A program made the translations under genes and the position numbers. The notes beneath the pieces were generated by a model. That model saw nothing but the letters and a program-made list of their open reading frames with translations, was not told the DNA's origin and did not search any database. This document shows positions 2,497 to 59,585 of a stretch of 64,000 bases of DNA, in pieces. Each line of letters begins with the position of its first letter. The stretch's first letter is position 1. The stretch covers positions 1 to 64,000 of IMG/VR virus record IMGVR_UViG_3300045594_000099, one strand, 5' to 3'. Source of the DNA: a virus.

Positions 2497-2594
2497 AGTA
2501 ACGACGTTGTTTTCTGTGAACTTGAGATATAGAGTATATATAATTATATATCTTTTATACTATAAGTTCACAGAGATAAACCTCATTAATCTGA
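2497..2594. repeat. Palindromic intergenic element, copy 1
   Basis: Left arm aacgacgttgttttctgtgaac, centre gtatatataattatatatc, right arm gttcacagagataaacctcattaatctg; starts right after the stop at 2495. Confidence 0.85.
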
Positions 2595-2657
2595 TGATAT
2601 ACATGGTCAATATGTAATATACAAATATAGATGATATGCAGTCAGCGAGATGCTGAT

Positions 2658-2686
2658 TTTACTTTCGTTAATAGTTGTTATATAAT
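2658..2686 (+). promoter_or_regulatory. Conserved cassette promoter (TTTACT-17-TATAAT)
   Basis: ctGATTTTACTTTCgttaatagttgtTATATAATATAA upstream of 2727. Confidence 0.75.
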
Positions 2687-2726
2687 ATAAATACATTGAA
2701 AAATGAACAGGAGGGAATGACATATT

Positions 2727-3680
2727 ATGACCGTTAAGTCTCGCTCTAAGAAATTCGAAGTGAATGACTCTCGCTTTCCGAATGAGCATATCAAGAATAG
2801 AAGCAATGTCGTCAATGATTTGACCGCTATTGATGTCAATCTAAGATACATGCCGACATGGGAAGAAGCTAAAGCTTTTCTTCCAGATGCTATCATGTCA
2901 ACATGGGCTGCTAAGTCAGATGAGTATGACTTCACTGAGCATCAGAAAGATGCTCTTATGTATAGAGCACTACGAAAGAAGTTCCTGCCTCAATATCTAG
3001 AATTCGTTAACGTAGTGTTTTCTGTCGATGGAATGACAGCACACGATCTTTCGCACACACTTCGAAACAGGAATGCTTCTTTCGCAGTAGAATGCACAGG
3101 AGACAATTACAAGAATCGCAATGATGTTTCTATGCCAGAAGCCTATAATGAGCTTGGCTTATCGCATGAGTATGAAGCACTTGCTACACTTCAAATGGAT
3201 CTGTATGCTAAAGCAATCAATTCTGGCATGAGCGTGCAAGATGCAAGACTTATCTTGCCAAGAGGCATCCATCAGTTCGTAATGCTTCGTATGACTTTAG
3301 GCAATGCATTGGGGCTGATCACGCAAAGAATTGACACCCAGATCCAGCCGCGTTCAGATAATGTCTTTGCTCTTCAGCTTGCAGTCGCTATGTGCAAGAA
3401 ATGGCCCTTGCTTGCAACTCTTATCGATTTTGATGACACTAACTGGTACTATGTCAAAGAGACTACGACTAATTTTGCTTCTAGATTCTTCAAGCCACTT
3501 CCGCAAAATGACAAGTTTGAGAATGATGACATTGAATTCAAATTCGATGCAGATCCTCTGCATATCCCAGGTCAGAAGACATTCATCAAGTTGCTGAATA
3601 AGTATAAAGATGAATTGCTAGCAATCAGAAAGCAAGCAGAAGCAGATTATCCATGGGTTTTCGATGAGGACTATCGCTGA
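2727..3680 (+). CDS. thyX: Divergent ThyX-like (flavin-dependent thymidylate synthase fold) protein
   Basis: VVFSVDGMTAHDLSHTLRNRNASFAVECTGDNY aligns to the ThyX motif RHRxxSxxxxSxRY with H to N, second S to C and R to G; downstream DARLILPRG...MLRMTLGNALGLITQR resembles the ThyX AR-x-LP / N-x-R block. Confidence 0.6.
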   Translation: MTVKSRSKKFEVNDSRFPNEHIKNRSNVVNDLTAIDVNLRYMPTWEEAKAFLPDAIMSTWAAKSDEYDFTEHQKDALMYRALRKKFLPQYLEFVNVVFSVDGMTAHDLSHTLRNRNASFAVECTGDNYKNRNDVSMPEAYNELGLSHEYEALATLQMDLYAKAINSGMSVQDARLILPRGIHQFVMLRMTLGNALGLITQRIDTQIQPRSDNVFALQLAVAMCKKWPLLATLIDFDDTNWYYVKETTTNFASRFFKPLPQNDKFENDDIEFKFDADPLHIPGQKTFIKLLNKYKDELLAIRKQAEADYPWVFDEDYR

Positions 3681-3703
3681 TCTAGCTGTTTGGAGTCTCT
3701 ATC

Positions 3704-5194
3704 ATGGCATATGACAAGGTTAAGAAAGCATGTCTTTCGCATAAGTTTTTAGAGCTTTTCTCTGATGATGATGAAGTGCTGTATGCTATGAAAGAGACGC
3801 CTAAGGCAGTGCTTCTGAAAGGCATTGCAACAGAGTCTTGGGTTCCGAAGTCATGCATATCAGAAGCGAATGCTATCGATTTTGATTCTATGTATTCTTC
3901 TCAGGAGAAGAGCATAAAATTTCCGATCAAGCATGACACAGAACACAAGTATAAGAACGTGCTTGCTTTGCCTTTGTATCAGCATCAGCAAGATGTAGTC
4001 AAAACACTGAAGAATAGCAGACGCTCATATCTTGGCATGGAGATGGGCACAGGAAAGACTGCTTCATCTCTTGCTCATATTGCTATACAGAAGCAGAAGT
4101 ATCCAATACAGATCATATGCGAAAAAGGCCTGATGTCCCAGTGGAAGAGCGAAATACATAAGTTTGCTCCAGACCTAGAAGACAGAGTAAGAATCATAAA
4201 TTACGACAAGATATTTCGAGATTCTTGCAAAGCGTATCTTTCAGAATTGAAGAAGAATCGCTACTTTCTTATACTCGAAGAAGTTTCTTGTCTAGGACAT
4301 ATAGAAGCTAAGAGAACGCAGAAGTCTATAGAGCTAGCTAAGAATGCTTTTGATGTTCAGATGCTTTCAGGCTCTTTCTACGGCGGCAAACTAGAGCAAT
4401 TCTATCCAGTCTTCACTATTCAGGGCTTTACTGGCTCTAAAGAGCAATTTGAAGGCATGTTCACTATAAAGATTCCTAGTGTCAAATCTGTAAGGACTAG
4501 ATATGGATACACTAAAATCAAAGACGAAAGAATTATTGGATATAAGAACATCGATTTGATGCTTAAGAAGTCTTCTGAATCTGGAGCTGTGTATCTTAAG
4601 ACAGAAGACTGCATAGACTTGCCTGAGACAGTCATATCTAGCGTATATGTAGCATTAGACAGGAAAGCAGTGAAGTATGAAGGTGCATTCTACAAGCTGC
4701 AGAGCACTATTGATGACAATGAAAAAAGAGGCATGCTCGCTAAGATAAAGCATATGAATTCTTGCGCAGACAACAAGAACAAGCTTGATGCTATCGAAGC
4801 GCTTCTAAGCAAGTCTTCAGATCGTTTTGTCATAATGTATTCGCTTGTAGATGAATTAGACGCACTTAAGAGAATTTGCAAGAAAGCTAATCGAAAAGTA
4901 TCGGAATGGAATGGATCCGTGAAGAACATGTCTGCTTTTGACAAGTATGACAATTCTGTGATGCTAGTCCAATGGCAGTCTGGTGCAAAAGGGCTGAATC
5001 TTCAGAAAGCAAACAAGATGATATTCACTTCTCCAATACCATCTGATGCTTACATACAAGCAAAGAAGAGAATACACAGGATCGGCCAGAAAAGAAAATG
5101 CTTCTATTGGCTTATCTGCTCTGATGACAGATTCGAAAGAAATAGGTATGAGCAGCTCTTCAAGTCTGAAGAAAGAGTCAATTCTATCGGTTGA
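3704..5194 (+). CDS. SNF2/Rad54-family helicase
   Basis: Motif I LGMEMGTGKT; motif II position LILEEVSCLGH (EE instead of DE); QSGAKGLNLQ; motif VI QAKKRIHRIGQKR. Confidence 0.8.
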   Translation: MAYDKVKKACLSHKFLELFSDDDEVLYAMKETPKAVLLKGIATESWVPKSCISEANAIDFDSMYSSQEKSIKFPIKHDTEHKYKNVLALPLYQHQQDVVKTLKNSRRSYLGMEMGTGKTASSLAHIAIQKQKYPIQIICEKGLMSQWKSEIHKFAPDLEDRVRIINYDKIFRDSCKAYLSELKKNRYFLILEEVSCLGHIEAKRTQKSIELAKNAFDVQMLSGSFYGGKLEQFYPVFTIQGFTGSKEQFEGMFTIKIPSVKSVRTRYGYTKIKDERIIGYKNIDLMLKKSSESGAVYLKTEDCIDLPETVISSVYVALDRKAVKYEGAFYKLQSTIDDNEKRGMLAKIKHMNSCADNKNKLDAIEALLSKSSDRFVIMYSLVDELDALKRICKKANRKVSEWNGSVKNMSAFDKYDNSVMLVQWQSGAKGLNLQKANKMIFTSPIPSDAYIQAKKRIHRIGQKRKCFYWLICSDDRFERNRYEQLFKSEERVNSIG

Positions 5195-5195
5195 T

Positions 5196-5224
5196 TTTAC
5201 ATTGCTAAAAATATGGTATATAAT
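5196..5224 (+). promoter_or_regulatory. Conserved cassette promoter (TTTACA-17-TATAAT)
   Basis: tGATTTTACAttgctaaaaatatggTATATAATATAAc; overlaps the tracked ATG at 5213, so the real start is taken downstream. Confidence 0.7.
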
Positions 5225-5805: not shown

Positions 5806-6498
5806 ATGAAAAGAAAAGACAAAGTCTGCGACATGTCATTATTCAGCATTCAGTCTATAGATGACTGGGATGTAAATGACATCATAGATTATGCTGGGTT
5901 TGATAGTGAGACTTATGCAAAGCTTGATGACGCAGTCATTCCTAAGATGTACAGACTTTTCAACGTATGGCCTTTAGCAGATGCTCAGAAGCTTGTCAGT
6001 GATGTCAAGGAAGAGTATTCTAGGTCGAATCTGAAAGACATCGTAGTAGACAACAGCATCTATATCTCGGAAGAGATTGACATGCTAAGCGTAAGCAAAG
6101 CATTGAGCATCAGCAACAAAGACAAAGTATTCCGAGTAGATGACTTCAATGCAATGAAAGACTTCGATAAGGCTTTGATTAAGAAGCCAAGAACTAACGA
6201 AGAGCTTTATGAAGCAAAATATTCAGCTTTCGATACAATTATGAAAGATTTTGACAATCGAAGGTTTCAGAAGTCTGCAGTAGAAAATCCTAAAGAATCG
6301 TTAGAGTTTGCGATTCACGACTATTTAGAGAATGCAATTTATTGCTACGATGAAGAAGGTCTGTTAGAGATTCGTGGATTGCATCAAGCAGAATACTTCA
6401 TTCGCAAAATTGTTGGCAAAAGGAATTTCTCTGAGAATACATGGAAGATGCTTTCTTTCGCTTATGCAATTGATGAGAGGAAGTATTCGGGTGACTAA
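5806..6498 (+). CDS. Hypothetical protein
   Basis: ATG 5806 (MKRKDKV) preceded by aaaagga; upstream part of tracked ORF overlaps previous gene. Confidence 0.6.
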   Translation: MKRKDKVCDMSLFSIQSIDDWDVNDIIDYAGFDSETYAKLDDAVIPKMYRLFNVWPLADAQKLVSDVKEEYSRSNLKDIVVDNSIYISEEIDMLSVSKALSISNKDKVFRVDDFNAMKDFDKALIKKPRTNEELYEAKYSAFDTIMKDFDNRRFQKSAVENPKESLEFAIHDYLENAIYCYDEEGLLEIRGLHQAEYFIRKIVGKRNFSENTWKMLSFAYAIDERKYSGD

Positions 6499-7345
6499 AG
6501 CTACGCCAAGAGACTACTTCAAGAATCTAGACGCAGTCTACATCAATCTAGATGCAGCTGCAGAAAGACGAGAAGCTATAGAGAATTCTTTTTCGAACAC
6601 TTTCAGAAGTCTAACAAGGGTTGTTCCAATAGACTTCAAAGACAAGTTTGCTGTTGGTGTAGATACTAAGTTGCGGCTTATGGATGCTCTGCAGAACTAT
6701 GATGAAAAAGGCTACTTCAAGCGTTCGAATCAGTATAAGATCGAAGACATCGAAGACTTCAAGAATAGAAAGAATGACTGCAGATTCGTCAATGAAGTCT
6801 GGACACCTGAACAGTATGCTGCACAGGAAAGCCTGTCTCAGACATATAAGAAGATACTAGAAGACTTTCTAGCTAGCAAACTAGAACGTATCATGATTTT
6901 CGAAGACGATGCGCGTGCTAGAGATTTCATGAATCAAGAAATAGACATTCCTGACGATGCAGAGATTTTAGCATGGGGAGGCGCTACATCTTCAGTTCAG
7001 ACAGATGCTAGGCATTTTATGAACGAGCAGCCTTTTCACTTTCTTAGAGTAAGTGGCAAGCGCACAGCATGGTACTGCACTGCTTATGAATTCGCAAGAA
7101 CTGGTGCAGCTAAGCTTCTTGAAGACTTCAATTCTGTTCCAGCTTATACGACAGACACTATTATCAGATACACATTAGACAGAGCTACTGCATATCGTCT
7201 ATCGCCAATGGGCTTCGTTCAGGGCGATTCATCGTATCTAGCTAGAGAAGGCATCAGAATGCCATTGACTAGAGATGAAGCAAAGACATATGATTTCAAA
7301 AATGTAATTGAGCATAAAGCAAAATTGCAAGCAAGCGCAAATTAG
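6491..7345 (+). CDS. Glycosyltransferase family 25-like protein, paralog 1
   Basis: GTG 6491 after gaggaag; AVYINLDAAAERREAIE resembles the GT25 N-terminus (vInL..s.eRr); TPEQYAAQESLSQ and IMIFEDDARA resemble the gEiGC.lSH and ilEDD blocks. Confidence 0.55.
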   Translation: MTKATPRDYFKNLDAVYINLDAAAERREAIENSFSNTFRSLTRVVPIDFKDKFAVGVDTKLRLMDALQNYDEKGYFKRSNQYKIEDIEDFKNRKNDCRFVNEVWTPEQYAAQESLSQTYKKILEDFLASKLERIMIFEDDARARDFMNQEIDIPDDAEILAWGGATSSVQTDARHFMNEQPFHFLRVSGKRTAWYCTAYEFARTGAAKLLEDFNSVPAYTTDTIIRYTLDRATAYRLSPMGFVQGDSSYLAREGIRMPLTRDEAKTYDFKNVIEHKAKLQASAN

Positions 7346-7358
7346 AAAGAACAATTTC

Positions 7359-8216
7359 ATGGTTGTTATGAAGCCAAGAGACTACTTCAAGACAATCGAC
7401 GCAGTCTACATCAATCTAGATGCAGCCAAAGAAAGACGAGCCTCTATAGAACATGATTTTGGCAATGCATTCAGAAGTCTTACAAGAGTAGAGCCTGTTC
7501 ATTTCGATGACATGCGTTCAGCTGGCGTAGATGCGAAGATGCGGCTAATCGAATCAGCTGAAAGCTACGATGAAAAAGGCTACTTCAAATGTTCAGAGCA
7601 GTACAAGAAGATAAGTGCCGATCGTTTCAAGAAGCGAAAGAGTGGCAGCGTTCACGCTAATTCAGTCTGGACACCTGAACAGTATGCTGCGCAGGAAAGC
7701 CTGTCTCAGACATCTAGAAAGATCTTGCAAGCTTTTCTTAGCACTTCGTTGAATAAGCTTATGATTCTTGAAGACGATGCGCGTGCTAGAAATTTCATGA
7801 ATCAAGAAATTGACATCCCAGATGCAGACATTTTAGTGTGGGGTGGAGCAGTAACATCTGCACAATCTGATGCGAATAGATTCGCTAAGAACACTTCGTT
7901 CTGGTTTTCTAAAATTGATGGAAAGCATAATGCTTGGTATACGACAGCTTATGAAGTTTCCAGAGCTGGAGCAAGCAAGCTTCTTGAAGAGTATAATTCT
8001 CGTCCTGCTTACACAACAGATACAGTATGGCGATATGCTTTTGATGAAGTGAATGCTTACCATCTTATACCAATGGGATTTGTTCAGGGAGCGTCATCAT
8101 ATTTAGCTGACTCCGGCGTAGCAATGCCTTTGACTAGAGATGAAGCTGCAGCATATTGCTTCAAAGACATAACACATCGGACTAAAATTGTACAAAAGAA
8201 CAAAGTGGTTATATAA
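7359..8216 (+). CDS. Glycosyltransferase family 25-like protein, paralog 2 (tandem duplicate)
   Basis: About 60% identical by eye to 6491..7345 along its whole length; a near-identical 45-nt DNA stretch gtctggacacctgaacagtatgctgc.caggaaagcctgtctcagaca occurs in both. Confidence 0.55.
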   Translation: MVVMKPRDYFKTIDAVYINLDAAKERRASIEHDFGNAFRSLTRVEPVHFDDMRSAGVDAKMRLIESAESYDEKGYFKCSEQYKKISADRFKKRKSGSVHANSVWTPEQYAAQESLSQTSRKILQAFLSTSLNKLMILEDDARARNFMNQEIDIPDADILVWGGAVTSAQSDANRFAKNTSFWFSKIDGKHNAWYTTAYEVSRAGASKLLEEYNSRPAYTTDTVWRYAFDEVNAYHLIPMGFVQGASSYLADSGVAMPLTRDEAAAYCFKDITHRTKIVQKNKVVI

Positions 8217-8753: not shown

Positions 8754-11700
8754 ATGTCATACATTGGACTTCATCAGCATCTTGATTCTTCATGTTTGGA
8801 TGGTTTTCAGACTCGTCAAGAACTTGTATCAAGAGCAAAAAGTCTTGGCATGAATGCTGTAGCTATAACAGATCATGGAACTTGTGCAATTCATGTCAAG
8901 TTTGCGCAAGAATGTGCTAAGCAGTCAGATGACAATCTTACGATCAAGCCGATATTCGGTATGGAGTCATATCTTGTAGACGATGTTCATGATATCATGA
9001 CAGACAGGATAGCTCATACTAGAGCTGGAAAGGTCAAATACAATAAAGAGACTGGCGAACCTGAATTAGAGAAGCAAAGAGCTTCAGACTTCAATCATTG
9101 TTGCTTATGGGCTCAGAATGACAAGGGCTTGGAGAATCTTTGGACTGTGTCAACTCTTTCGTATACAGAAGGGTTCTACAGAAAGCCACGTATTGACTTC
9201 AATATGCTTAAGACGTATGGCGAAGGCTTGTTCGTATCAGATGGCTGCATGCTTTCTAGGGTGTCAAGATGCATAGCTAATGATGATATCAAAGGTGCTA
9301 TTGCATGGGAGAAGAAGCTTATTGATGCTGTTGGCAAAGAAAATGTTCTTGTAGAGATTCATACATGGCAGTTCTGCGATCCAAAGACTGAAGAGCAGTT
9401 CAATCTAAATAGCATAATGACGAAGACTAATAAAGTCAAGATTGAGATTGCTAAAGAGCTTGGTCTTAGAACTATAGCAGTCAATGATGCTCATTATGCA
9501 AAAAGAGAAGATTATCGTTGGCATGAGCTTGTATGGCAGTCAACTACAGGAAAAGGTAGCGATCTGAATGATGACAAGACTAGTGGACGTGGAGAGACAG
9601 CTGCTTGGGTCATGTCTGAAGATGAATGCTTCTATTGGCTAAAGAAGCATGGTCTTGATGATGAAGACATTCAGACAGCTATAGACAATACTCAATGGGT
9701 TGCAGATCATTGCAATGCGAAAATCAAGTTCGGCATGGTTCCACCGCGATATGGTGACTCTAAGGAAGACGATGACAGGTTGCTTGAAAAGCTTGTCTTA
9801 GAGGGTGCTAGGGAAAGAATTCCTTCTGTAGATCAAGCTCAAGAATATATGGCAGAGCTTAAGAAAGAGCTTGAGCTTATAGAGAAGACAGACTTGTCAG
9901 GATACTTCCTTATTGTCTGGGATTATGTCAACTTTGTCTTGTCAGATGATGAAGATGGCTCTAAGTATGGAATTGTAGGCAAGAAAGCTTCGTTGCTAGG
10001 TGTAGCACGTGGTTCAAGTGGAGCTTCAGTAGTATGCTACTTCTTGAGAATTACGAATATTGATCCGATAAAGAACAGTCTGTATTTCGAACGTTTTCTT
10101 ACAGCAGGACGTGTTGTATCGTCTGTCAACATCAAGTTTGAAGATGGATGGAAGAAATTCTCACCATCTGAAAAGATATCTCTATCTGATGGCACAAGTA
10201 AAGATGCATGGAAGCTTTTGTATGAAGAAGATGATACAGAATATGGGAAAGAGATAGATTCAAGCTTCGACTTCAAAGACTGCCCAGATATCGATCTCGA
10301 TTTTGAAGCTTCAGTCATTCCACAAGTAGATGCATATCTTAAGAAACGCTGGGGCGAATGGAATGTATGCAGAATCGGTACTGAACTACAAGGCAAGATA
10401 TCGACTTCGGTCCACGATGTATTCGCTATCCATGGATACTCTTCTTCAGACATATTCAATCTGAATCGGAAGATTGCTGCAACAGGCTGGGATACTGGTG
10501 AATACATGGAGCTTCAGACTTATGAAGATTTCATAGAATGCATATCTAAAGATGAAGACCTCAAGAAGATAGTAGATGAGACAGAATACTTCAAAGAGGC
10601 ATGGAATTTCGGTGGAAGAATCAGGACATATGGCGTGCATGCATCAGGCTATGTGATATCTAAGAAGTCATTGCTTGGCAAGATGCCGCTTCGTGTTGCA
10701 CAAGGCATTTTAGTGACTCAATTCTCTCATGATCAGGTTGCAAGCATGGGATTCATAAAGTATGATGTTCTCAAGCTTTCTTCACTTGGGACAATACGCG
10801 AAGTATATGAGAATGTACACGGCAAACTTGATCCCGAATCGATATATGCCGATATGCAGAATGACAAGCTATTCGATGGCGCTGCTATATGGAAGCCGAC
10901 ATGGGATGGAGATGTCTTGGGCATATTCCAGCTAGATACTCCATTAGGCAAGACTACTGCAACGAATGCTATAGTCAATTCAGTATCTGATGCAGGCATG
11001 ATTACAGCTGTTGATCGACCAGGTCTAGTACGAAGTGGACTAATCAAAGACTTCTACAAGGTCAGAAAAGGCGAAGAGGGATGTCCAAGCTACCATCCAT
11101 TCACAGATTCTATTCTTGAAGAGACTTCTGGCTTTGTCGTATATCAGGAGCAGATCATGAAGATCTACTCTAGGCTATGCAACATGAATATGGAGGAAGC
11201 AGACAATGTAAGGAAAGTTTTCTCTAAGAAGCAAGTCACTAAAGTGCCTGCAATGAAGAAGTTGCTTTATGATGTATGTCTTAATGACAAGAACTTCATA
11301 GACAGTGTTCCTGTGAAGTATTCATCTCCTAAAGAATGTCTTGACGATCTATGGGTTGGAATATCAAGAACAGCAGAATATTCATTCAACAAATCGCATT
11401 GCCTTGATGGTCACACTTTAGTAAAGCTAGATACTGGTGAATGCATATATATGTCTGAGTTATTCAAAAGATATGAATCTGGTGAAGAGCTGAAGATAAT
11501 GTCTATGATGCCAGATGGAAAGATAGCTTCTGCAAAAATTCATGAAGTAATGAAGTCTGGAATCAAAGAGTTGCTTACGATAACTCTTGCAAATGGAGCA
11601 CTTATTCGAGCAACTCCAGAGCATAGGTTCTTGACTACTAGAGGTTATGTCGCTGTGAAAGACTTTCGCGATGATGAGGAGCTTATATTCGATAGTAAGC

Positions 11701-13424
11701 ATAGATATGCACATACTTCATTGTCAAAAGCTATGAAAGATACACAGTCAAGAATTACTCATGAGCAAAGATGCAAGCATCAGCAAAATGTTCAGAAGAT
11801 TCATCCAGATAGATGCAAGAATGGGTATATTGCTGGGCAAAAATCATTGATGAGACTTAGGGAAGATGAAGAGTGGTCTAAAAGACATAATAAGAATACA
11901 TCGATTGGTATTCAAAAGTATTGGAATGGCATAGACGATAAAAAGCATGCAAGAAAATGGACTGGGTTCACTTTTTGGCAGACAATGTCTAAAGAAGAAC
12001 TCATGATATTCGAACAGTCTCGGGCCAAAAAGATGAAAGCTACATTAGCTAAAAAGACAGACGATCAGTGGCAAGAGATAACGGATAAAATTAGGAATAC
12101 TAAGCTTGAGCATGGATGTGTCAACTTCGGCAAGAAGACATTTTTGTCAGATGGAAGGCTTTGCGATTCTATGTTTGAAGCTAAGATTGGTGAGTATTTG
12201 ATTGACAGAGGTGTAAAGTTTAGTCTTCATAAACAACTCAGAGGGCAAGGCGACCATAAGCATGTATTCTGTGATTTTTATGCAAATGGCGTCTATATAG
12301 AAGCTGATGGTCTGTACAGAGGCGATGACTTCTTTAAGAATAAGAAGTATGGAGATGATTTGCCATTCTTAGTTTTGTATCCAAACGACTGGAAATATAA
12401 GATTGATGCTATGCTTATGGGAGATCACGTATCGAATGGCATCAAAGTCGTTTCTATTGAAAAGAAGCCTCTTCCTGGAAGATGGCATAAGACATATGGA
12501 ATGACATATGACATTGAGATGGATGACCATTATCCAGCAAACTTCATAGCAAATGGCATCGTATCGCACAATTCAATGTCATACGGCATGATAACAGCAT
12601 ACGAACAATATATGAAGGTCAGATGGCCATTGCAGTTCATATGCGCATCTTTGAATACAGATCCAGGTCAGATAGAGTTTCTGAAGTATGCTATAGTTCG
12701 TGGTTATAATGTCAAAACTCCCAATGTCAACAAATCAACAGACAAATATGTAGTAGACAACAATACTATATACATGCCAATGTGGTCTATAAAAGGTGTT
12801 GGTGGAAAAGCTGTTGAAGAGATTCTCAATAATGGTCCATATTCATCATATGATGACTTTCTAGACAAGACTACTGGAAGAGGTGGTCGAAAGAAGAATG
12901 TTCTTCAAAGTCTTATATCAATAGGCGCTTTTGATGGAGTAGATGAAAGAAGTAGATATGACCTGATGTGTGCATTTGCAGAATCTAAAGGACTAGAAAA
13001 ACCATATAAGAAGAATTTCGAATCTGACAGAATAATTGCTAAGATCGAGCAAGAACTTCTAGGTGTATCATTGTCATATGACGATGTTCTAGATAACAAA
13101 GACTGGCTGTCATCAGAATCTCCTCAATCAATGGCTGGTCTTATGAAGACTGATGTAGGTGAATCTACTAAGATTGCTGGCAAGATAACATCTACGAAGA
13201 CTAAGAATGCTAAGAATGGCTTGATGGCATGGGTTACGCTTAAGCTTGTGTCTCAAGAAGAAGTCAAGATAACAGTATTTGCAAATTCGTATTCTAGATT
13301 CAAAGACTATCTTTCTACTGGAGATTTAGTATCGATAATGTGCAAAAGAAGCTCGGATTTCAATGGCGCACCATCATTCATATGCAATTATGTGTTCAAC
13401 AAGTCTATTCAGCAAGACAAATAG
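8754..13424 (+). CDS. dnaE: DNA polymerase III alpha subunit (DnaE type) interrupted by an intein
   Basis: PHP motifs GLHQHLDSSCLDG and AITDHG; GVARGSSGASVVCYFLRITNIDPI..LYFERFL; PDIDLDF; GVHASGYVI; IKYDVLKL; GIFQLD; DRPGLV; YQEQIM; FNKSH/(intein)/SMSYGMITAY. Confidence 0.93.
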   Translation: MSYIGLHQHLDSSCLDGFQTRQELVSRAKSLGMNAVAITDHGTCAIHVKFAQECAKQSDDNLTIKPIFGMESYLVDDVHDIMTDRIAHTRAGKVKYNKETGEPELEKQRASDFNHCCLWAQNDKGLENLWTVSTLSYTEGFYRKPRIDFNMLKTYGEGLFVSDGCMLSRVSRCIANDDIKGAIAWEKKLIDAVGKENVLVEIHTWQFCDPKTEEQFNLNSIMTKTNKVKIEIAKELGLRTIAVNDAHYAKREDYRWHELVWQSTTGKGSDLNDDKTSGRGETAAWVMSEDECFYWLKKHGLDDEDIQTAIDNTQWVADHCNAKIKFGMVPPRYGDSKEDDDRLLEKLVLEGARERIPSVDQAQEYMAELKKELELIEKTDLSGYFLIVWDYVNFVLSDDEDGSKYGIVGKKASLLGVARGSSGASVVCYFLRITNIDPIKNSLYFERFLTAGRVVSSVNIKFEDGWKKFSPSEKISLSDGTSKDAWKLLYEEDDTEYGKEIDSSFDFKDCPDIDLDFEASVIPQVDAYLKKRWGEWNVCRIGTELQGKISTSVHDVFAIHGYSSSDIFNLNRKIAATGWDTGEYMELQTYEDFIECISKDEDLKKIVDETEYFKEAWNFGGRIRTYGVHASGYVISKKSLLGKMPLRVAQGILVTQFSHDQVASMGFIKYDVLKLSSLGTIREVYENVHGKLDPESIYADMQNDKLFDGAAIWKPTWDGDVLGIFQLDTPLGKTTATNAIVNSVSDAGMITAVDRPGLVRSGLIKDFYKVRKGEEGCPSYHPFTDSILEETSGFVVYQEQIMKIYSRLCNMNMEEADNVRKVFSKKQVTKVPAMKKLLYDVCLNDKNFIDSVPVKYSSPKECLDDLWVGISRTAEYSFNKSHCLDGHTLVKLDTGECIYMSELFKRYESGEELKIMSMMPDGKIASAKIHEVMKSGIKELLTITLANGALIRATPEHRFLTTRGYVAVKDFRDDEELIFDSKHRYAHTSLSKAMKDTQSRITHEQRCKHQQNVQKIHPDRCKNGYIAGQKSLMRLREDEEWSKRHNKNTSIGIQKYWNGIDDKKHARKWTGFTFWQTMSKEELMIFEQSRAKKMKATLAKKTDDQWQEITDKIRNTKLEHGCVNFGKKTFLSDGRLCDSMFEAKIGEYLIDRGVKFSLHKQLRGQGDHKHVFCDFYANGVYIEADGLYRGDDFFKNKKYGDDLPFLVLYPNDWKYKIDAMLMGDHVSNGIKVVSIEKKPLPGRWHKTYGMTYDIEMDDHYPANFIANGIVSHNSMSYGMITAYEQYMKVRWPLQFICASLNTDPGQIEFLKYAIVRGYNVKTPNVNKSTDKYVVDNNTIYMPMWSIKGVGGKAVEEILNNGPYSSYDDFLDKTTGRGGRKKNVLQSLISIGAFDGVDERSRYDLMCAFAESKGLEKPYKKNFESDRIIAKIEQELLGVSLSYDDVLDNKDWLSSESPQSMAGLMKTDVGESTKIAGKITSTKTKNAKNGLMAWVTLKLVSQEEVKITVFANSYSRFKDYLSTGDLVSIMCKRSSDFNGAPSFICNYVFNKSIQQDK
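11400..12572 (+). mobile_element. 391-aa intein in DnaE at the FNKSH site, with a non-LAGLIDADG (PD-(D/E)xK / DUF559-like) endonuclease insert
   Basis: Begins CLDGHTLVKL (Cys1 codon 11400-11402); block B ATPEHRF; blocks F/G TYDIEMDDHYPANFIANGIVSHN then Ser+1 (12573); central CDSMFEAKIGEYLIDRGVKF...FCDFYANGVYIEADG. Confidence 0.85.
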
Positions 13425-13520
13425 ATTAACGACGTTATTCTCTGTTGATACGAATTTTTAAGTATATATAATTATATATATAGTATACTAGGTATTCACA
13501 GAGATAAACGTCGTTAATCT
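13423..13520. repeat. Palindromic intergenic element, copy 2
   Basis: agattaacgacgttattctctgttgat..gtatatataattatatata..attcacagagataaacgtcgttaatct; begins at the dnaE stop. Confidence 0.85.
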
Positions 13521-13563
13521 GGTGAAATATCAGATATCAATCTAATAAAGGAAAACATCGAAA

Positions 13564-17150: not shown

Positions 17151-17224
17151 GCCTTTGTAATTCAACTGGATAGAATGCCCGTCTTCTAAACGGGATGTTG
17201 CGAGTCCGAGTCTCGCCAAAGGCA
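17151..17224 (+). tRNA. tRNA-Arg (anticodon UCU)
   Basis: Cloverleaf by hand: acceptor GCCTTTG/CAAAGGC, D stem ATTC/GAAT, anticodon stem CCCGT/ACGGG with loop CTTCTAA, T stem GCGAG/CTCGC with loop TCCGAGT, discriminator A; 74 nt. Confidence 0.85.
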
Positions 17225-17322
17225 CGCACAAAAAATGTAGAAAGGTGATTATGTAATGCTGGTAGTTTAACTCTCTTTTCTACCAGCACATACCAATATA
17301 TGCTGTTAGCTCAGAAGGTTAG

Positions 17323-18127: not shown

Positions 18128-18175
18128 CGATAAAATTGAAAGAAGACTAGAAAGAAGATACTATAAGACATATTA

Positions 18176-18217
18176 GCATTATTTAGCATTATTTAGCGTA
18201 TAGACGCATTATTTAGC
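18176..18217. repeat. Iteron-like direct repeats GCATTATTTAGC (three copies, two in tandem)
   Basis: gcattatttagcattatttagc-gtatagac-gcattatttagc, plus a partial aagcattaag, in the gap before 18249. Confidence 0.6.
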
Positions 18218-18248
18218 ATAGTTTAAGCATTAAGAAAGTGGATACGAT

Positions 18249-26583: not shown

Positions 26584-26683
26584 CAGAATTACGACGTTTA
26601 TCTCTATGAACTTCAAGTATCAAATATATATAATTATATATACCAAAAATTCTAAGTCATTAGAGAACAACGTCGTTAATCTG
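26584..26683. repeat. Palindromic intergenic element, copy 3 (arms in flipped orientation)
   Basis: cagaattacgacgtttatctctatgaac..aaatatatataattatatata..gtcattagagaacaacgtcgttaatctg. Confidence 0.85.
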
Positions 26684-26691
26684 TACTCGAT

Positions 26692-26720
26692 TTTACAATT
26701 GTTCAATAATGATATATAAT
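26692..26720 (+). promoter_or_regulatory. Conserved cassette promoter (TTTACA-17-TATAAT)
   Basis: cGATTTTACAattgttcaataatgataTATAATATAA, abutting palindrome copy 3. Confidence 0.75.
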
Positions 26721-26749
26721 ATAAATATAGTTGAATAGAAAGGACTCAA

Positions 26750-29876: not shown

Positions 29877-30425
29877 TTGCTTCTGTCAGATACTTCTATC
29901 AAAAGAATCAATGCTATTGAGCCATTCAATGAAGACAATTTGCAAGCAGCGTCATATGATTTGACATTAAGCGACGTATTCATTGTTACAGATGCAGAAA
30001 TATTATGTCCTGGAGATGCAAGTCTTACAAGGAAATGCTATTCTACTAAATTAGTAACGCATCAGTACAAGCTCATGCCAAACGAATTCATCTTGTCATC
30101 TACTATTGAGAAAGTAAGCATTCCCAATAACATCGGAGCAAGATTCGAAGGCAAATCGTCTCTTGGCCGCATCGGCCTAGCTACGCATATAACTGCTGGC
30201 TTCATTGACCCTGGCTTTGAAGGCAATATCACTCTTGAGATAAAGAATGAAGCATCGTATCCAATACTTCTCACTTGTGGGATGAAGATAGGACAGATAT
30301 GCTTCTACTATATGGATGAAGCTAGTTCTGAACCGTATGGAAGCACTAGCAAGTCGCATTATCAAAATCAGTTTTCAGCAACTAGTTCGTGGTACGTATC
30401 TAGTTTTACAAAGCAGCATAAGTAA
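29877..30425 (+). CDS. dcd: dCTP deaminase (Dcd family)
   Basis: MLLSDTSIKR..IEPFNEDNLQAASYDLTL; EGKSSLGRIGLATHITAGFIDPGFEGNITLEIKN. Confidence 0.9.
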   Translation: MLLSDTSIKRINAIEPFNEDNLQAASYDLTLSDVFIVTDAEILCPGDASLTRKCYSTKLVTHQYKLMPNEFILSSTIEKVSIPNNIGARFEGKSSLGRIGLATHITAGFIDPGFEGNITLEIKNEASYPILLTCGMKIGQICFYYMDEASSEPYGSTSKSHYQNQFSATSSWYVSSFTKQHK

Positions 30426-41077: not shown

Positions 41078-41102
41078 TATCTGAAAGCAGTCATGAAGCA
41101 CG

Positions 41103-41192
41103 CACTAGATTGTTCTCTGATGACTTAGAATCGTATGTATATATAATTATATAGACATTATTCTTGAAGTTCACAGAGATAAACGTCGTAAC
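41103..41192. repeat. Palindromic intergenic element, copy 4 (left outer end eroded)
   Basis: tgttctctgatgacttagaatcg..tatatataattatata..gttcacagagataaacgtcgtaac. Confidence 0.8.
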
Positions 41193-41336
41193 ACTGAGTA
41201 TACATCAGATTCATATCTAATATATGAAATGGAAAGAATAGCTGAAATGACTTGAAACTGTCTGTTTTCTATATTAAGATAGGAGCAATAGCATGCGTGA
41301 TGAATTGCTAGATAAGTTCAATACAAAGAGCAAATC

Positions 41337-41569: not shown

Positions 41570-42997
41570 ATGAACACCGACATAGCAGTACGACAAAAAC
41601 CATTCATGTGGGCGACACTTGATTTCATTGAACGACAGATAGGTCGTCTGCACAGATTCATTGACGTGCAACAGCAAACAGACAATGAGATTACAGCTTT
41701 GATTCCGACATATGAGAAAGAGGAATCGCGCAATGTTACTCTTGATTCTCTTTTGCGACAGACACGCAGAATCAACAACATACTGATTGTCATAAACGGA
41801 AGCGGAATCAGCGATGTCTCAGCAAAGATTGCGCAGACATACGCCGGTTGCTTTCCCAATATTCATGTCATCAGACTTCGTGTTCCAGGAAAAGCTAATG
41901 CGCTTAATGAAGGGTATTCATGCATTCGTCATGACTTTCCAAACACTATGATGATTCTTGGATGTGACGCTGATGTAGAGGCTGACTCTCATATGGTAGA
42001 GCATCTTGAGCATGACATGAAGCAATGGCCTCTTTCACTTGGAGTTCGTGCACGGTATGCATTCCGCAAACCAGATACGAATTCAGACTTTTCTCGTTCT
42101 CTTGTCTCTGGTCAACGTGTCGAATTCGCAATGACTGAGGTTCGTGCACAACTCAGAGGTCAGCATACATCTATTCTTGGTGGTCAAGCGACATTGTTCA
42201 GCATGAAAGCTCTTGATTCGATAGCGAAGACAATGCCCAATCGACTTCCATGGGATGCATCAAGCAAGGTTGAGGATGCACAGCTTACAAGAATCGGGTC
42301 TCGTTTGGGACTGGAGGCACGAGTATCGTTACAAGCAAGAGCTTGGACTGGTTTGATGCTTCACTCATACCAATGGCACAGTCAAAGACGAAAATGGCAG
42401 GATGGTCATTTTGATGATCTAACTCGTGAATTCCATCCATATCAGGATAGAAGAAGATGGCTTGACCAATTGGCTCTTGGTTGGAATGTCATTCTTCGAG
42501 TGCTGTTTGTCTCACTGATTGGTGCAGACATTTTGACTGGCAGTCTTTCTTTGTCGCTGTGGTGGCTTACACCAATCGTTCTTGCTATCATTCAATCAAC
42601 ATTGATTGCAGTCAGAATGCCAGACAGATCTCTTGGAGAAGTCTTTCGTGCTTTAGTGTTCATTCCTGGTGAGATCTACTATCTGCGAACTCTATCTGTA
42701 TGGATAGAATCGCTAGTATCGCTTTTGCTGAATCTTCGTTCTGATGGATGGAAGAAGCAGTACAAAGCTGAGTCTTCGAGCAAGCATGTCAATGTTTCAG
42801 GTTGGATGGTGCTCACTGTGTCTTTTTCGCTACCGATGATAGGACTTATCGCACTGTTGCGATATGCACCAGCAGCAGGTAGTGTGGCAATGACTGTTGG
42901 ATGGAGTTTGCTAGCTTTCATGACCATTCTGTCTTCATTGTCAATGACATTCTTGATACTTAGGATTGTAAGACGATTCAAAGAGATGAGACCATGA
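41570..42997 (+). CDS. Membrane-embedded processive GT2 synthase (cellulose/PNAG/hyaluronan-synthase-like)
   Basis: ALIPTYEKEE; GCDADVEAD (DxD); VEDAQLT (ED); SQRRKWQDG (QxxRW); several C-terminal hydrophobic helices. Confidence 0.7.
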   Translation: MNTDIAVRQKPFMWATLDFIERQIGRLHRFIDVQQQTDNEITALIPTYEKEESRNVTLDSLLRQTRRINNILIVINGSGISDVSAKIAQTYAGCFPNIHVIRLRVPGKANALNEGYSCIRHDFPNTMMILGCDADVEADSHMVEHLEHDMKQWPLSLGVRARYAFRKPDTNSDFSRSLVSGQRVEFAMTEVRAQLRGQHTSILGGQATLFSMKALDSIAKTMPNRLPWDASSKVEDAQLTRIGSRLGLEARVSLQARAWTGLMLHSYQWHSQRRKWQDGHFDDLTREFHPYQDRRRWLDQLALGWNVILRVLFVSLIGADILTGSLSLSLWWLTPIVLAIIQSTLIAVRMPDRSLGEVFRALVFIPGEIYYLRTLSVWIESLVSLLLNLRSDGWKKQYKAESSSKHVNVSGWMVLTVSFSLPMIGLIALLRYAPAAGSVAMTVGWSLLAFMTILSSLSMTFLILRIVRRFKEMRP

Positions 42998-43813: not shown

Positions 43814-44145
43814 ACGACGAAGACTCAAAGTCTGACAAGCAGTATCGTACAAAGAACGCTATGCTCAAGCGAATCACCTCGTCATACTATTCTGACACTG
43901 GTGAGGTGCTGTTCAAGCTAGAGCTAAAGACATTAGATGCGACGCTCTTCTCATTCGTCAAGTTCGAAGACTTGAAGACATTGCTCAAAGATGTCTTGCA
44001 GATCAAAGACAAGAAGATCGTAGACTTGTCAAGAGTCATAGACAAGCCAGTCAAATTGACGGTCGTGATGTCTTCTACTATATTTGAAGAAGTGACGACT
44101 GTGTCTAACTTCATTGATCCGACTAAAGCAATCGCAGTCATCTGA
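43810..44145 (+). CDS. Hypothetical protein
   Basis: 111-aa coupled ORF. Confidence 0.5.
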   Translation: MNDEDSKSDKQYRTKNAMLKRITSSYYSDTGEVLFKLELKTLDATLFSFVKFEDLKTLLKDVLQIKDKKIVDLSRVIDKPVKLTVVMSSTIFEEVTTVSNFIDPTKAIAVI

Positions 44146-44242
44146 TTGTACGACGTTGTCATGTGTGGACTTAGAATGCGAGGTATATATAATTTATAAT
44201 CCTAATACTACTAAGTTCACACATGACATCCTCATAACACGT
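44142..44242. repeat. Palindromic intergenic element, copy 5
   Basis: ctgattgtacgacgttgtcatgtgtggacttagaatg..gtatatataatttataat..gttcacacatgacatcctcataacacg; compensatory arm changes keep pairing (gtcatgtgtg / cacacatgac). Confidence 0.8.
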
Positions 44243-44318
44243 GAGATACACTGAGTTAAAATATAGGATATGAATATGACAGCGTCATGATGAAGCTGAA
44301 ACAAAGCTCAATCTTGAT

Positions 44319-44347
44319 TTTACTTTCTGCAAAAGTGGTTATATAAT
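44319..44347 (+). promoter_or_regulatory. Conserved cassette promoter (TTTACT-17-TATAAT)
   Basis: tGATTTTACTTTCtgcaaaagtggtTATATAATATAA; drives GC-rich island 2. Confidence 0.75.
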
Positions 44348-44391
44348 ATAAATATAAGGAAAACAAATAAAAAAGAAAGAAAGCGATAAAA

Positions 44392-48711: not shown

Positions 48712-48972
48712 ATGGAAGACTTCAACATAAAATACTCAAATCGACAGAAAGGGTATATTGAATATTTGACAGAAAATCCACGTATTGCAGGCTACATAAT
48801 GCGAAGAAAAATTGTGATTTATGCAGATGAATCTACTGGCAAGAAACAGTATGCATATCGCTGGATAATACGTCACGATGACGGTTTTGGCTATAAGACT
48901 TTGAATGAAGCTAAGAAAGCAGTAGAAGAAAGAATGCGAAATGGAAGTCTGGAGCAATTCACATTATTATGA
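48712..48972 (+). CDS. Hypothetical protein
   Basis: 86-aa ORF after gaggagtgacat. Confidence 0.5.
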   Translation: MEDFNIKYSNRQKGYIEYLTENPRIAGYIMRRKIVIYADESTGKKQYAYRWIIRHDDGFGYKTLNEAKKAVEERMRNGSLEQFTLL

Positions 48973-49124
48973 CTAGCTGCGACGATCTTCCATTCTACAG
49001 ATACATCCAATCTGGTTTCAGCATAGACTACTTGTTCAGAGAGTTCGGAATTAGCTATGAAGAAGCTACTCGTATCTTTGATGACTTCGATGATGCATAT
49101 TGCAAAGACGTTCTAGATGAGTAG
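48969..49124 (+). CDS. Hypothetical small protein (51 aa)
   Basis: ATGA-coupled; MTSCDDLPFYRYIQSGF...; below track cutoff. Confidence 0.3.
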   Translation: MTSCDDLPFYRYIQSGFSIDYLFREFGISYEEATRIFDDFDDAYCKDVLDE

Positions 49125-49222
49125 ATTTACGACGTTGTTCTCTAATGACTTAGAATTGTAAGTATATATAATTATATATACTGAATACTCGAGGTTCACA
49201 CATATAAACCTCGTAATTCTGA
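49122..49222. repeat. Palindromic intergenic element, copy 6
   Basis: tagatttacgacgttgttctctaatgacttagaattg..gtatatataattatatatac..ggttcacacatataaacctcgtaattctg. Confidence 0.85.
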
Positions 49223-49312
49223 GGATATGCAGAGTATAAAGATAGGATATGAATATGACATGAACATGCTGATTGAAAACGAAGATAGAAACAGAAACGA
49301 AAAGGACGAAAT

Positions 49313-49483
49313 ATGGTTGCGCTTGTCAAGCCAAATGATGTAGACAACAAAGAATTCGACTTCAAGACTAGCTACAAAAGGGACTGGTATGATGCAGACC
49401 AAGTAGATGACTTTCTAGATGATGTGCATGACACTATACTGGAGCTAGCTAAAGACAACATACGATTGAGAAAGAGACTTTGA
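49313..49483 (+). CDS. DivIVA-domain small protein (56 aa)
   Basis: FDFKTSYKRDWYDADQVDDFLDDVHDTILELAKDNIRLRKRL fits the DivIVA N-terminal pattern F....rGY....VD.FLd.v....l..eN..L. Confidence 0.55.
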   Translation: MVALVKPNDVDNKEFDFKTSYKRDWYDADQVDDFLDDVHDTILELAKDNIRLRKRL

Positions 49484-49488
49484 ATAGA

Positions 49489-49920
49489 ATGACTGAATAT
49501 ATGAGACTATCAGATGTTGCTCAAGAACCGACTAGAAAGCATGCATTTGATGCTGGCTCTGATCTGCATTCTTCTGAAGACACGACAATCGAACCTGGAC
49601 AGTACAAGCTTGTGCATACAGGCATTGCTATTAGACTAGACAAGAACAAAGTAGCAATGGTAGTTCCACGATCTGGTCTAGCTATCCATAATGGAATCAC
49701 AGTCATGAATTCTCCAGGAATTGTAGACTCTGGATACAGAGGAGAGATTCTAGTCAATCTTGTCAATCACAGCGACAAAGTATTCGAAATCAAGACTGGT
49801 GACAGAATCGCTCAGCTTCTTGTCATGTCTGTAGACTTGTCAAATTGGGAAGAAACAGAAAGCCTGGGCAAGTCTGAAGATGGAAGAGATGAATCTGGCT
49901 TCGGATCTACAGGAGTCTGA
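49489..49920 (+). CDS. dut: Trimeric dUTPase
   Basis: All five motifs: DAGSDL, PRSG, GIVDSGYRGEI, GDRIAQLL, RDESGFGSTG. Confidence 0.93.
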   Translation: MTEYMRLSDVAQEPTRKHAFDAGSDLHSSEDTTIEPGQYKLVHTGIAIRLDKNKVAMVVPRSGLAIHNGITVMNSPGIVDSGYRGEILVNLVNHSDKVFEIKTGDRIAQLLVMSVDLSNWEETESLGKSEDGRDESGFGSTGV

Positions 49921-50496: not shown

Positions 50497-50564
50497 CAGA
50501 TTAATTGCAGTAAACCGTTAGTATATAATTATATATACAAGCTTCAATGACTACAGTTAATCTG
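50497..50564. repeat. Short variant of the palindromic element (termini and centre only)
   Basis: cagattaattgcag..gtatataattatatatac..ctacagttaatctg; its right end forms the first codons of ORF 50547. Confidence 0.6.
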
Positions 50565-51638: not shown

Positions 51639-51733
51639 CAGAATTACGACGTTGTTCTCTGTGAACTTCCAGTATCAAGTATATATAATTATATATGCAT
51701 CGGATTCTAAGTCCACACATATAAACGTCGTCA
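51639..51733. repeat. Palindromic intergenic element, copy 7
   Basis: cagaattacgacgttgttctctgtgaac..gtatatataattatatatg..gtccacacatataaacgtcgtcaat. Confidence 0.85.
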
Positions 51734-51746
51734 ATAGTATTAGCGG

Positions 51747-54659: not shown

Positions 54660-54661
54660 TC

Positions 54662-58812: not shown

Positions 58813-58840
58813 TATCCTTCATTGGATCTCACTGTATCAT

Positions 58841-58935
58841 CAGGTTAACGACGTTTAATCGTGTGATACTTCAGTAATAGGTATTATAAAATATATATAC
58901 CTAATACTTCAAGTTCACAGAGATAAACGTCGTCA
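58841..58935. repeat. Palindromic intergenic element, copy 8 (convergent gene ends)
   Basis: caggttaacgacgtttaatcgtgtgat..gtattataaaatatatatac..gttcacagagataaacgtcgtcaat; lies between the + strand stop at 58812 and the - strand stop at 58937. Confidence 0.8.
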
Positions 58936-58936
58936 A

Positions 58937-59338
58937 TCATACATGCATGATGCAAGCATTGCCATGCCAGTCTGTATACACTGCATTCTTTACGTTAGCT
59001 GCTTTCATCAGCTTCTGGCATCTCTTGCATGGCTTAGACATCGTGGCCGTGCCGTCAGAATAGACTCTAGCTACGTAGACAGTAGAATTGCCAGCATCAC
59101 CTCTGCATGCCTTCAAAGCTTGCTCTTCAGCATGGACAGATATGCCTGATGGTCTGTCTAGCATGTATGCAGGATTGTTTCGCATCTTGTTGATTCCTAC
59201 AGACAGAACATTGTTGCTTCTTACGACTAAAGCACCATGTTTCTTCTTGCATGAACTGAGCTTAGCTAGTTCTGTAGCTATGTCAAGCCAATGCTGATGT
59301 CTTGCTGATATCATGTCTTTCATAGCTTTCAGAACCAT
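58937..59338 (-). CDS. dCMP (deoxycytidylate) / cytidine deaminase family zinc enzyme
   Basis: VHAEEQAL (HAE) and SKPCKRCQKLM (PCxxC); the only convincing minus-strand gene in the window. Confidence 0.85.
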   Translation of the reverse strand: MVLKAMKDMISARHQHWLDIATELAKLSSCKKKHGALVVRSNNVLSVGINKMRNNPAYMLDRPSGISVHAEEQALKACRGDAGNSTVYVARVYSDGTATMSKPCKRCQKLMKAANVKNAVYTDWHGNACIMHV

Positions 59339-59457
59339 CGACGTTCGAAGTCATTTCCAGGAAGTCGAATCCATCTTAAACTTTGATTAGCTATCATGTC
59401 GTTATTGCTTTTGATCCACATTCGATATCGCTTTCTTGTTTTTGTTTTTATAGTTAT

Positions 59458-59486
59458 ATTATATAACATAATAGTACGAAAGTAAA
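59458..59486 (-). promoter_or_regulatory. Conserved cassette promoter on the minus strand (TTTACT-17-TATAAT)
   Basis: Reverse complement reads aGATTTTACTTTCgtactattatgtTATATAATATAAc; drives the deaminase gene. Confidence 0.75.
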
Positions 59487-59518
59487 ATCTGAAGCATTCC
59501 AGTTGTTGTCAGGTTTAT

Positions 59519-59585
59519 CCAGATTGAAATCGTTGTTTAGTATCCATATAATTATATAGACTACGAATACAAAGCGTTCAGAAGT
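59519..59585. repeat. Degenerate copy of the palindromic element
   Basis: ccagattgaaatcgttgtttagtatccatataattatatagactacgaatacaaagcgttcagaag between the divergent promoters. Confidence 0.45.

Follow-up and report, generated by a model that had tools for sequence, protein, structure and literature searches.

Symmetric, promoter-like palindromes at gene boundaries in a lineage of uncultivated phages

A palindrome of ~100 nt recurs close to stop codons in a 64,000-nucleotide stretch of phage DNA (IMG/VR record IMGVR_UViG_3300045594_000099, positions 1 to 64,000; this whole stretch is called the window here), and the question raised by so long a repeat is whether it acts as RNA, as a site on the DNA or as a mobile element. 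An initial annotation of the same DNA had offered RNase III-type processing or termination hairpins, cruciform or protein-binding sites, and palindromes resembling miniature inverted-repeat transposable elements (MITEs) that also serve as recombination joints between cassettes. We favour the reading, which we regard as possible rather than probable, that the element is a symmetric DNA site of promoter architecture, bound by RNA polymerase and probably by a phage factor specific for its conserved arm box, and that it would serve both as an orientation-independent boundary and as a recombination linker.

The palindrome family and its half-site architecture

The existence of a dispersed family of ~100-nt palindromes in the window was confirmed. 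A profile hidden Markov model (HMM) built from the eight full copies found by the initial annotation recovered all of them (nhmmer; E-values 1e-24 to 2e-19) and detected no other full copy within the window. There, the central 18-mer TATATATAATTATATATA occurs 11 times at up to three mismatches, where 0.12 occurrences are expected, and the outer 13-mer also 11 times, against 1.14 expected. All copies are intergenic. Their proximity to stop codons holds as well: the distance between the upstream stop codon and the start of the element is 0, -2, 27, 21, -1, -2, 27 and 28 nt for the eight full copies, and the gap from the element to the next start codon is larger than that from the preceding stop. 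The description 'near-perfect' was an overstatement, as the ungapped arm complementarity is 70-85% and the 13-nt spacers pair near chance. The full copies are numbered 1-6, 8 and 9, the partial one 7 and a doubtful relic 10; the last two had been annotated together as reduced copies, and the one at 50497 is a genuine partial element, whereas the one at 59519 retains the centre only. The copies are listed below, where fold z compares RNA folding with that of shuffled sequences.

2496-2593: palindrome copy 1, directly after the stop of the open reading frame (ORF) 2040-2495; HMM 76.9 bits, fold z = -5.75
13423-13521: palindrome copy 2, overlapping the TAG stop of the DnaE polymerase gene
26584-26683: palindrome copy 3, 27 nt past the primase gene, with the arm variants in reverse order relative to the other copies
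41099-41195: palindrome copy 4, left outer box missing, sense half ATGACT-16-TATAAT; fold z = -0.93
44145-44241: palindrome copy 5, with the CATGTGTG/CACACATG variant in both arms
49122-49221 (HMM 49123-49220): palindrome copy 6, overlapping the TAG stop of ORF 48969-49124; fold z = -1.65
50497-50563: partial element, copy 7, with outer CAGATTAA/TTAATCTG and centre GTATATAATTATATATAC; fold z = -6.65
51639-51735: palindrome copy 8, directly upstream of the tail operon; HMM 84.7 bits, fold z = -3.1
58841-58938: palindrome copy 9, between the convergent genes for a tail lysin (plus strand, ends 58812) and a dCMP deaminase (minus strand, ends 58937)
59519-59585: doubtful relic, copy 10 (family D9), between divergent transcription units; HMM E about 9, not significant

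Copy 3 had been described as flipped, which is true of one arm variant only (GTTGTTC versus GTTTATC), the HMM scoring this copy at 75.4 bits on the minus strand and 69.6 bits on the plus strand. Copy 4 marks the start of a hyperplastic region at 41-52 kb. Just downstream of copies 5 and 6 lies a conserved stretch of ~40 nt that includes an identical 18-mer, ATAGGATATGAATATGAC, at 44263-44280 and 49242-49259.

Beyond the window, exact-word scans yielded roughly 130 more copies of the element, distributed over some ten viral contigs of IMG/VR and a similar number of metagenome contigs; sequences of these related uncultivated phages carrying the element are designated by L-numbers (L001, L002 and so on). 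Close relatives (L002, L006, L030 and L052-L054) are about 90% identical to the window, and for distant ones the protein identity is 40% for the ligase, 48% for the tail lysin and 40% for the dCMP deaminase. Five hits came from a search of 185,579 species-representative bacterial and archaeal genomes, and in each of them only the 18-nt seed matches the element. Among 50,697 isolated-phage records there was no close match to a 4-kb region of the window (megablast) and no element (blastn of the consensus).

Each element consists of two inverted half-sites of ~55-60 nt, with the layout ATATtCTcAGAG - TTACGACGTT - TATCTCTGTGAAC - N17 - TATAAT (or GATAAT), in which the conserved arm box is ACGACGTTTATCTCTGTGAAC. 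The geometry is strict: in most of ~100 half-sites, on both strands, GTGAAC is followed by the hexamer at exactly 17 nt (copy 1 has GTGAAC-17-TATAAT on both strands), the main exception being a variant centre with TATAAA at 16 nt, and 44 nt separate the arm ends in 40 of 44 elements. The spacers vary in sequence, sharing 5.4 of 13 positions where 4.0 are expected by composition. At the centre, TATAATTATA, the TATAAT hexamers of opposite strands overlap by 2 bp; of 32 element clusters, 15 have TATAAT in both halves and 24 have it on one strand or both. Alignments A1 and A2 show the outer boxes to be (G)TTACGACG...CGTCGTAA(C), and conservation fades gradually outward, leaving the element without sharp ends. 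Two lineages with 40% identical ligases agree in the arm consensus at 26 of 31 positions, and one defined position differs (C versus T). No solo half-site was found among roughly 200 halves, the apparent ones lying at locus ends or having a diverged partner arm, which rules out a chance-duplicated unidirectional promoter. The obligatory presence of both halves argues either that a symmetric complex binds or that a hairpin or cruciform truly contributes.

A conserved box, a variable spacer of fixed 17-nt length and a consensus -10 hexamer together make up the architecture of a sigma-70-type promoter. The comparison can be made within the same DNA, because the window holds a second repeat family that is clearly of this promoter type, TGATTTTACTTTC-N11-GTGTTATATAATATAACTATAAAT, with at least 17 copies (families D2-D7) and conservation reaching about 12 nt downstream of the -10 hexamer. 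These standard promoters are as follows.

Plus strand, standard promoters: 125-186, 2654, 5192, 15355, 16791, 20548, 22021, 26688, 29169, 34345, 35779, 39619, 43510, 44315, 46636, 47883 and 59591
Plus strand, 2654-2702: standard promoter, as an example, 60 nt downstream of copy 1
Plus strand, 26688-26736, 44315-44363 and 59591: standard promoters downstream of palindromes (the first after copy 3, the second after copy 5)
Minus strand, 59445-59489: standard promoter belonging to the dCMP deaminase gene

The -10 region of the elements matches that of the standard promoters, and immediately before the hexamer the sequence GTATA is similar to the GTTA of the latter. Roughly one in five halves carries TTGAC or ATGAC with a spacing of 16 nt and matches the -35 at 4-5 of 6 positions. 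The sense half of copy 2 reads TTGATA-16-TATAAT (13445-13472), which agrees with a promoter at 11 of 12 positions, and no other promoter lies ahead of the next ORF (13564); the orthologues of copy 2 in L052-L054 have TTGACT-16-TATAAT, and halves of this kind are also found in L004 and L019. The three window copies without a downstream standard promoter (2, 4 and 6) all have the better -35 on the sense side. At the locus shared by L001, L011, L014 and L021, a canonical terminator precedes the element by ~45 nt, so that termination there does not require the element, which sits where a promoter would. A weak trend points the same way: TATAAT is retained on the half that would fire in the sense direction in seven of eight discordant clusters (our own tally; sign test, p about 0.07). 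Finally, copy 9, between convergent genes, has two degenerate central hexamers (TAAAAT and TATATT), whereas copy 10, between divergent units, has lost its outer boxes (fold z = -0.42) and retains TTGAAA-17-TATAAT and a perfect overlapping pair of TATAAT hexamers; this difference fits a promoter model, with one case of each kind.

We propose that host sigma-A RNA polymerase may bind the element in either orientation and that a factor conserved in the phage lineage probably recognises the arm box. Binding of the polymerase either way, together with such a factor, would make the element an orientation-independent boundary between transcription units. The long hairpin in read-through RNA would then be a physical by-product of the symmetry, which may add attenuation or processing. 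As dispersed 100-nt repeats that contain both orientations, the elements are also substrates for recombination. The promoter role is predicted from architecture; the role as a recombination linker was demonstrated by comparison of related genomes, as described below. Of the options in the initial annotation, that of a protein-binding site agrees with the half-site architecture at the level of DNA.

Several observations weigh against a promoter. Family-wide, a better -35 does not correlate with the absence of a downstream promoter (Fisher p = 0.63), and overall the sense halves and the antisense halves score alike as promoters (Wilcoxon p = 0.96). The consensus GTGAAC agrees with TTGACA at only three of six positions, and the absence of solo half-sites is unexpected for a simple one-way promoter. 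A standard promoter follows within ~120 nt after four or five of the eight window copies, so that a promoter in the element looks redundant there. Several elements lie between convergent genes (copy 9, L001 3640 and L011 5945), where both promoters would give antisense RNA. Scans of about 60 ORFs with Pfam and PHROGs returned no candidate arm-binding protein, and the promoter activity of the elements is itself a prediction.

Base pairing and alternative functions

The initial annotation had argued for selection on pairing. Arm pairing shows no sign of selection, and four independent tests agree on this. First, complementarity is the same within elements (28.69 of 43) as between them (28.49 of 43; z = 0.3, 26 non-redundant clusters). 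Second, in an ungapped 29-sequence alignment, 71.4% of cells are paired against 71.3% with shuffled partners (218 of 500 shuffles reach the observed value), and the covariation analysis that had been suggested gave a score of 0.155 for both the observed and the shuffled alignment. Third, the polymorphic arm variants (TTA/TGT, AACCT/GACTT and others) combine independently between halves. Fourth, there is no strand asymmetry: sense-strand oppositions comprise 124 G-U and 131 A-C, and the folding energy of the sense strand minus that of the antisense strand is -0.26 +/- 4.3 kcal/mol (p = 0.97). The arms are 75-100% paired per position, nearly always with the same pair type (about 80% overall), and the 13-nt spacers are 11-66% paired per position, about chance for their composition except for a T-A pair adjoining the arm. 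The changes in both arms of copy 5, on which the argument for selection had rested, are present in the sequence. Copies 6 and 8, however, share this right-arm variant, CACACAT, and lack the matching change in the left arm; the variant of copy 5 is therefore better read as a reassortment of arm variants than as compensation.

These results bear most directly on the best-surviving alternative, an unlikely one in our estimate, in which the element is an RNA hairpin at the 3' end of the upstream message, with a ~26-bp stem and an apical AT stem, acting as an RNase III site, a 3' stabiliser or a terminator or attenuator that lacks a U-tract. Such a hairpin would suit the position of the elements, which start 0-30 nt past stop codons and leave a larger gap to the next start, and elements at convergent gene ends (copy 9, L001 3640 and L011 5945) would suit a bidirectional terminator. 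The inverted pairing of the halves is obligatory, and with arms 80% paired, any transcript that reads through will contain the duplex; six of the eight full copies outdo shuffled sequences in folding by a wide margin (z -3.1 to -7.9; -7.61 in copy 9, whose spacers happen to pair). Copies 4 and 6, however, fold like shuffled sequence, and a hairpin kept for its pairing accords poorly with the lack of surplus complementarity within elements and of covariation. Nor does it account for spacers that are unpaired yet of fixed length, for an arm sequence conserved far more than pairing requires, or for the failure of the sense strand to favour G-U over A-C. At the gathering threshold, Rfam matched one tRNA in the window and none of the palindromes. 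The intercistronic RNase III sites of phage T7 and Bacillus phage SP82 are likewise repeated, sequence-related hairpins, and they act as RNA on the transcribed strand; the palindromes differ from them in showing no strand bias and no selection on pairing, and in having an internal 'loop' that is fixed in length like a promoter spacer.

An intrinsic terminator was rejected. As the initial annotation had correctly noted, the copies lack a T-tract: no T-run follows any of them, and a consensus scan calls canonical GC-hairpin and T-run terminators elsewhere in the window (for example, near 47850 and 16915) and not at the elements, which such a terminator can precede.

Less probable again, in our judgement, is that the palindrome is a site at which a phage DNA-binding protein acts other than in initiation, for example a replication origin, a DNA-unwinding element, a transcription roadblock or a site related to packaging or to a nucleoprotein, with the TATAAT centre serving merely as an AT-rich region for melting or bending. 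Much of what was described above would be expected of such a site, namely an arm sequence strongly conserved across lineages, a fixed 44-nt geometry, an AT-rich centre flanked by two inverted boxes, symmetry relative to gene direction and pairing that is not selected. The difficulty is that the 17-nt spacing to a sigma-70 consensus hexamer and the -10 region resembling that of standard promoters would then be a coincidence; in addition, at least eight origins in 64 kb would be unusual, and no candidate binding protein was found among the ORFs scanned.

Recombination at the elements

Comparison of related phages shows that cassettes have been flipped, inserted or deleted, and half-sites reshuffled, by recombination at the elements. 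The clearest case involves L001 and L011, which are 92% identical and collinear except for one segment inverted between two elements (L001 3639-4537 versus L011 5944-6838). Both breakpoints are inside elements, the gene in the inverted segment (212/221 amino acids) is 92% identical between the two, and a cassette with a 131-amino-acid gene beside the inversion is present in L001 only. The window carries a comparable unit.

58937-59489, minus strand: inverted cassette comprising the dCMP deaminase gene and its own standard promoter (59445-59489)

This cassette, which has copy 9 on one side and copy 10 on the other, is the sole unit on the minus strand that was found in the window; in distant relatives, the dCMP deaminase homologue is co-directional with its neighbours and located elsewhere. 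At the level of half-sites, one orthologous locus with flanks about 95% identical has kept its arms while the inner 45 nt differ completely between genomes (a core swap), and the same discrete spacer types are shared by elements that are not orthologous, across genomes and in either orientation. In L021, two elements stand in tandem 35 nt apart (2468-2564 and 2599-2688), where L001, L011 and L014 have one. The initial annotation had proposed checking related phages for presence or absence of the element; at orthologous junctions it is gained, lost or shifted by one gene, for example after the gene for the 687-amino-acid probable tape measure protein, or at the ligase gene, where relatives have ligase-[element]-166aa and the window has ligase-151aa-[element]. 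The idea that the palindromes are recombination joints between cassettes is thus borne out by these inversions, core swaps, gains and losses. Not every rearrangement uses the elements, however, because the replacements that distinguish the window from L002 in the hyperplastic region break at promoters and ribosome-binding sites and not inside palindromes.

These rearrangements might suggest that moving or flipping cassettes is the sole role of the element, as a selfish or dedicated recombination element of the kind represented by a MITE-like palindrome or a site for a site-specific recombinase analogous to attC; we consider this improbable. It would accommodate the inversion with breakpoints within elements, the inverted dCMP deaminase cassette, the tandem duplication in L021, the presence, absence and displacement at orthologous junctions, the reassortment of half-sites and a position at gene 3' ends, where attC also sits. 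A dedicated enzyme was not apparent, as scans of ~60 of the larger ORFs in the window turned up neither a transposase nor an integrase. Around 50 elements, examined at 13 offsets, short direct repeats (4-8 nt) were no commoner than expected by chance (two single matches in all); with no target-site duplication, nothing points to transposition. Homologous recombination of the general kind would be enough, and among the proteins of the phage are a UvsX-like recombinase and a Holliday junction resolvase.

Two specific forms of this explanation were rejected. Correia elements (NEMIS, Neisseria) and ERIC elements (enterobacteria) are palindromic intergenic repeats of 100-150 bp that are co-transcribed and promoter-capable, with hairpins that RNase III can cleave; they are chromosomal MITEs with terminal inverted repeats, a TA target-site duplication and hundreds of copies. 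The palindromes, which the initial annotation had likened to MITEs, have no target-site duplication, no sharp ends and no copies in the species-representative bacterial and archaeal genomes searched, and are confined to one phage lineage; no transposase was found in the window. Integron attC sites are imperfect palindromes of ~60-140 bp at cassette 3' ends, with conserved outer boxes (RYYYAAC/GTTRRRY), a variable middle, strand-specific extrahelical bases, variable length and a cognate integrase. Of these features, the defining boxes (R''/R', RYYYAAC...GTTRRRY), the strand asymmetry and the variable length were not found here, nor was an integrase among the ~60 ORFs scanned, and the halves are interchangeable and symmetric.

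A broader version of the promoter reading would see in the palindromes a built-in cassette system, in which symmetric promoter/insulator palindromes recognised by a phage factor bracket genes or operons, so that cassettes inverted, swapped or captured between co-infecting phages stay expressed and insulated. In such a system, exchange might take place at the AT-rich centre through cruciform resolution or a dedicated enzyme. We think this version improbable too; were it true, it would be a phage counterpart of the cassette logic of integrons, made from promoters.

One insertion at an element is of another kind. In L002, a 1.47-kb IS200/IS605-type element (8995-10467) replaces the left half and centre of copy 7 (window 50497-50537) and encodes a 420-amino-acid TnpB (OrfB_IS605 and Cas12f-like TNB domains) whose nearest relatives are on Bifidobacterium plasmids (44% identity); the ends of the insertion are unrelated to the palindrome. 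The 16 nt of the right arm of copy 7 beside the insertion show five differences between the two genomes, in flanks that are about 97% identical.

Known analogues and genomic context

A literature search for a described equivalent brought up only papers on promoter-early stem-loops (PeSLs) and on bidirectional promoters. In T4-type phages, a PeSL joins a stem-loop to a sigma-70-like promoter in an intergenic unit of ~100 bp (Arbiol et al. 2010, PMC2839356; Comeau et al. 2014, PMC4122927). The stem-loop can overlap the -10 or -35 box, and through recombination between PeSLs, which cluster in hyperplastic regions, gene cassettes are inserted, deleted and replaced (PMC2839356, PMC4122927). They are the closest functional analogue of the palindrome family, since in both a repeated ~100-bp intergenic motif lies between a stop codon and the next gene in hyperplastic regions, and its copies act as homology for cassette rearrangement between related phages. 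In contrast to the small GC-rich hairpin of a PeSL, the whole element here is made of two inverted promoter-like halves around one centre, the main documented rearrangement is inversion, and a separate promoter family often follows the palindrome. The lineage is distantly related to actinophage myoviruses, and the promoter and terminator roles considered here are predicted. What is new relative to PeSLs is the full symmetry, the inversion of cassettes and the unrelated phage lineage.

Bidirectional promoters of prokaryotes are described as pseudo-symmetric sequences whose two directions share a -10 element and start transcription divergently (PMC12825309). The palindromes resemble them (Warman et al. 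2021; PMC12825309) in their overlapping opposite-strand -10 hexamers, their pseudo-symmetry and the outermost position of the upstream elements. However, the known bidirectional promoters are single-copy and locally symmetric, whereas here the symmetry extends ~55 nt to each side in a dispersed repeat family; the palindromes mostly stand at the ends of co-directional genes, so that one direction would be antisense; and the predicted distance between start sites is about 15 bp, compared with the common 10, 18 or 23 bp.

If the favoured reading holds, the idea behind PeSLs, that dispersed regulatory repeats double as linkers for module shuffling, would extend beyond T4-like phages to an uncultivated human-gut lineage. 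The design would be new, in that a fully symmetric element works alike after its cassette has flipped, and this could explain isolated opposite-strand genes in otherwise unidirectional phage genomes. Should the arms bind a phage factor, the family would represent a new class of promoter and a handle for finding that factor. For annotation, the case advises caution, as a long and strongly folding palindrome past stop codons need not be an RNA element; comparing complementarity within and between elements can separate DNA elements from RNA elements.

The closest isolated relatives of the phage are actinobacteriophage myoviruses, at roughly 30% protein identity, and one related metagenome contig carries a human-gut label. 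Only hints of the host are available: the similarity to actinophage myoviruses, the proximity of the L002 TnpB to Bifidobacterium plasmids and the human-gut label. The window has 40.6% G+C, with nearly all genes on the plus strand. In addition to the recombinase and resolvase mentioned above, it encodes an NAD-dependent ligase, a helicase, a DnaE-type polymerase, an exonuclease, DnaC-, DnaB- and primase-like proteins, a weak terminase match, tail genes and a tail lysin; in the tail operon after copy 8, the tail chaperone is at 51815 and the probable tape measure protein at 52596. The DnaE-type polymerase (8754-13424, 1556 amino acids) contains an intein (Intein_splicing match, residues 894-1273).

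Genes for nucleotide metabolism are dense (ThyX-like, dCTP deaminase, nucleoside 2-deoxyribosyltransferase, YfbR-like nucleotidase, dUTPase and dCMP deaminase) and at least five genes are glycosyltransferase-like; the regions concerned are 2727-3680, 6374-8216, 24594-25643, 27685-28686, 29877-31483, 41570-42997, 49480-49920 and 58937-59338. Together, they suggest a hypermodified, possibly glycosylated DNA base. Two of the glycosyltransferase-like genes, at 6374-7345 and 7308-8216, are paralogues from a tandem duplication with an 868-nt period and blocks that are 75-90% identical. Further repeats include GCATTATTTAGC, present three times in the intergenic region upstream of ORF 18249 (18170-18230; two copies adjacent, the third 9 nt on). 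A tRNA-Arg(TCT) gene is located at 17151-17225 in a 325-nt intergenic region, with terminator-like sites of a hairpin and T-run upstream at 16915 and 17129.

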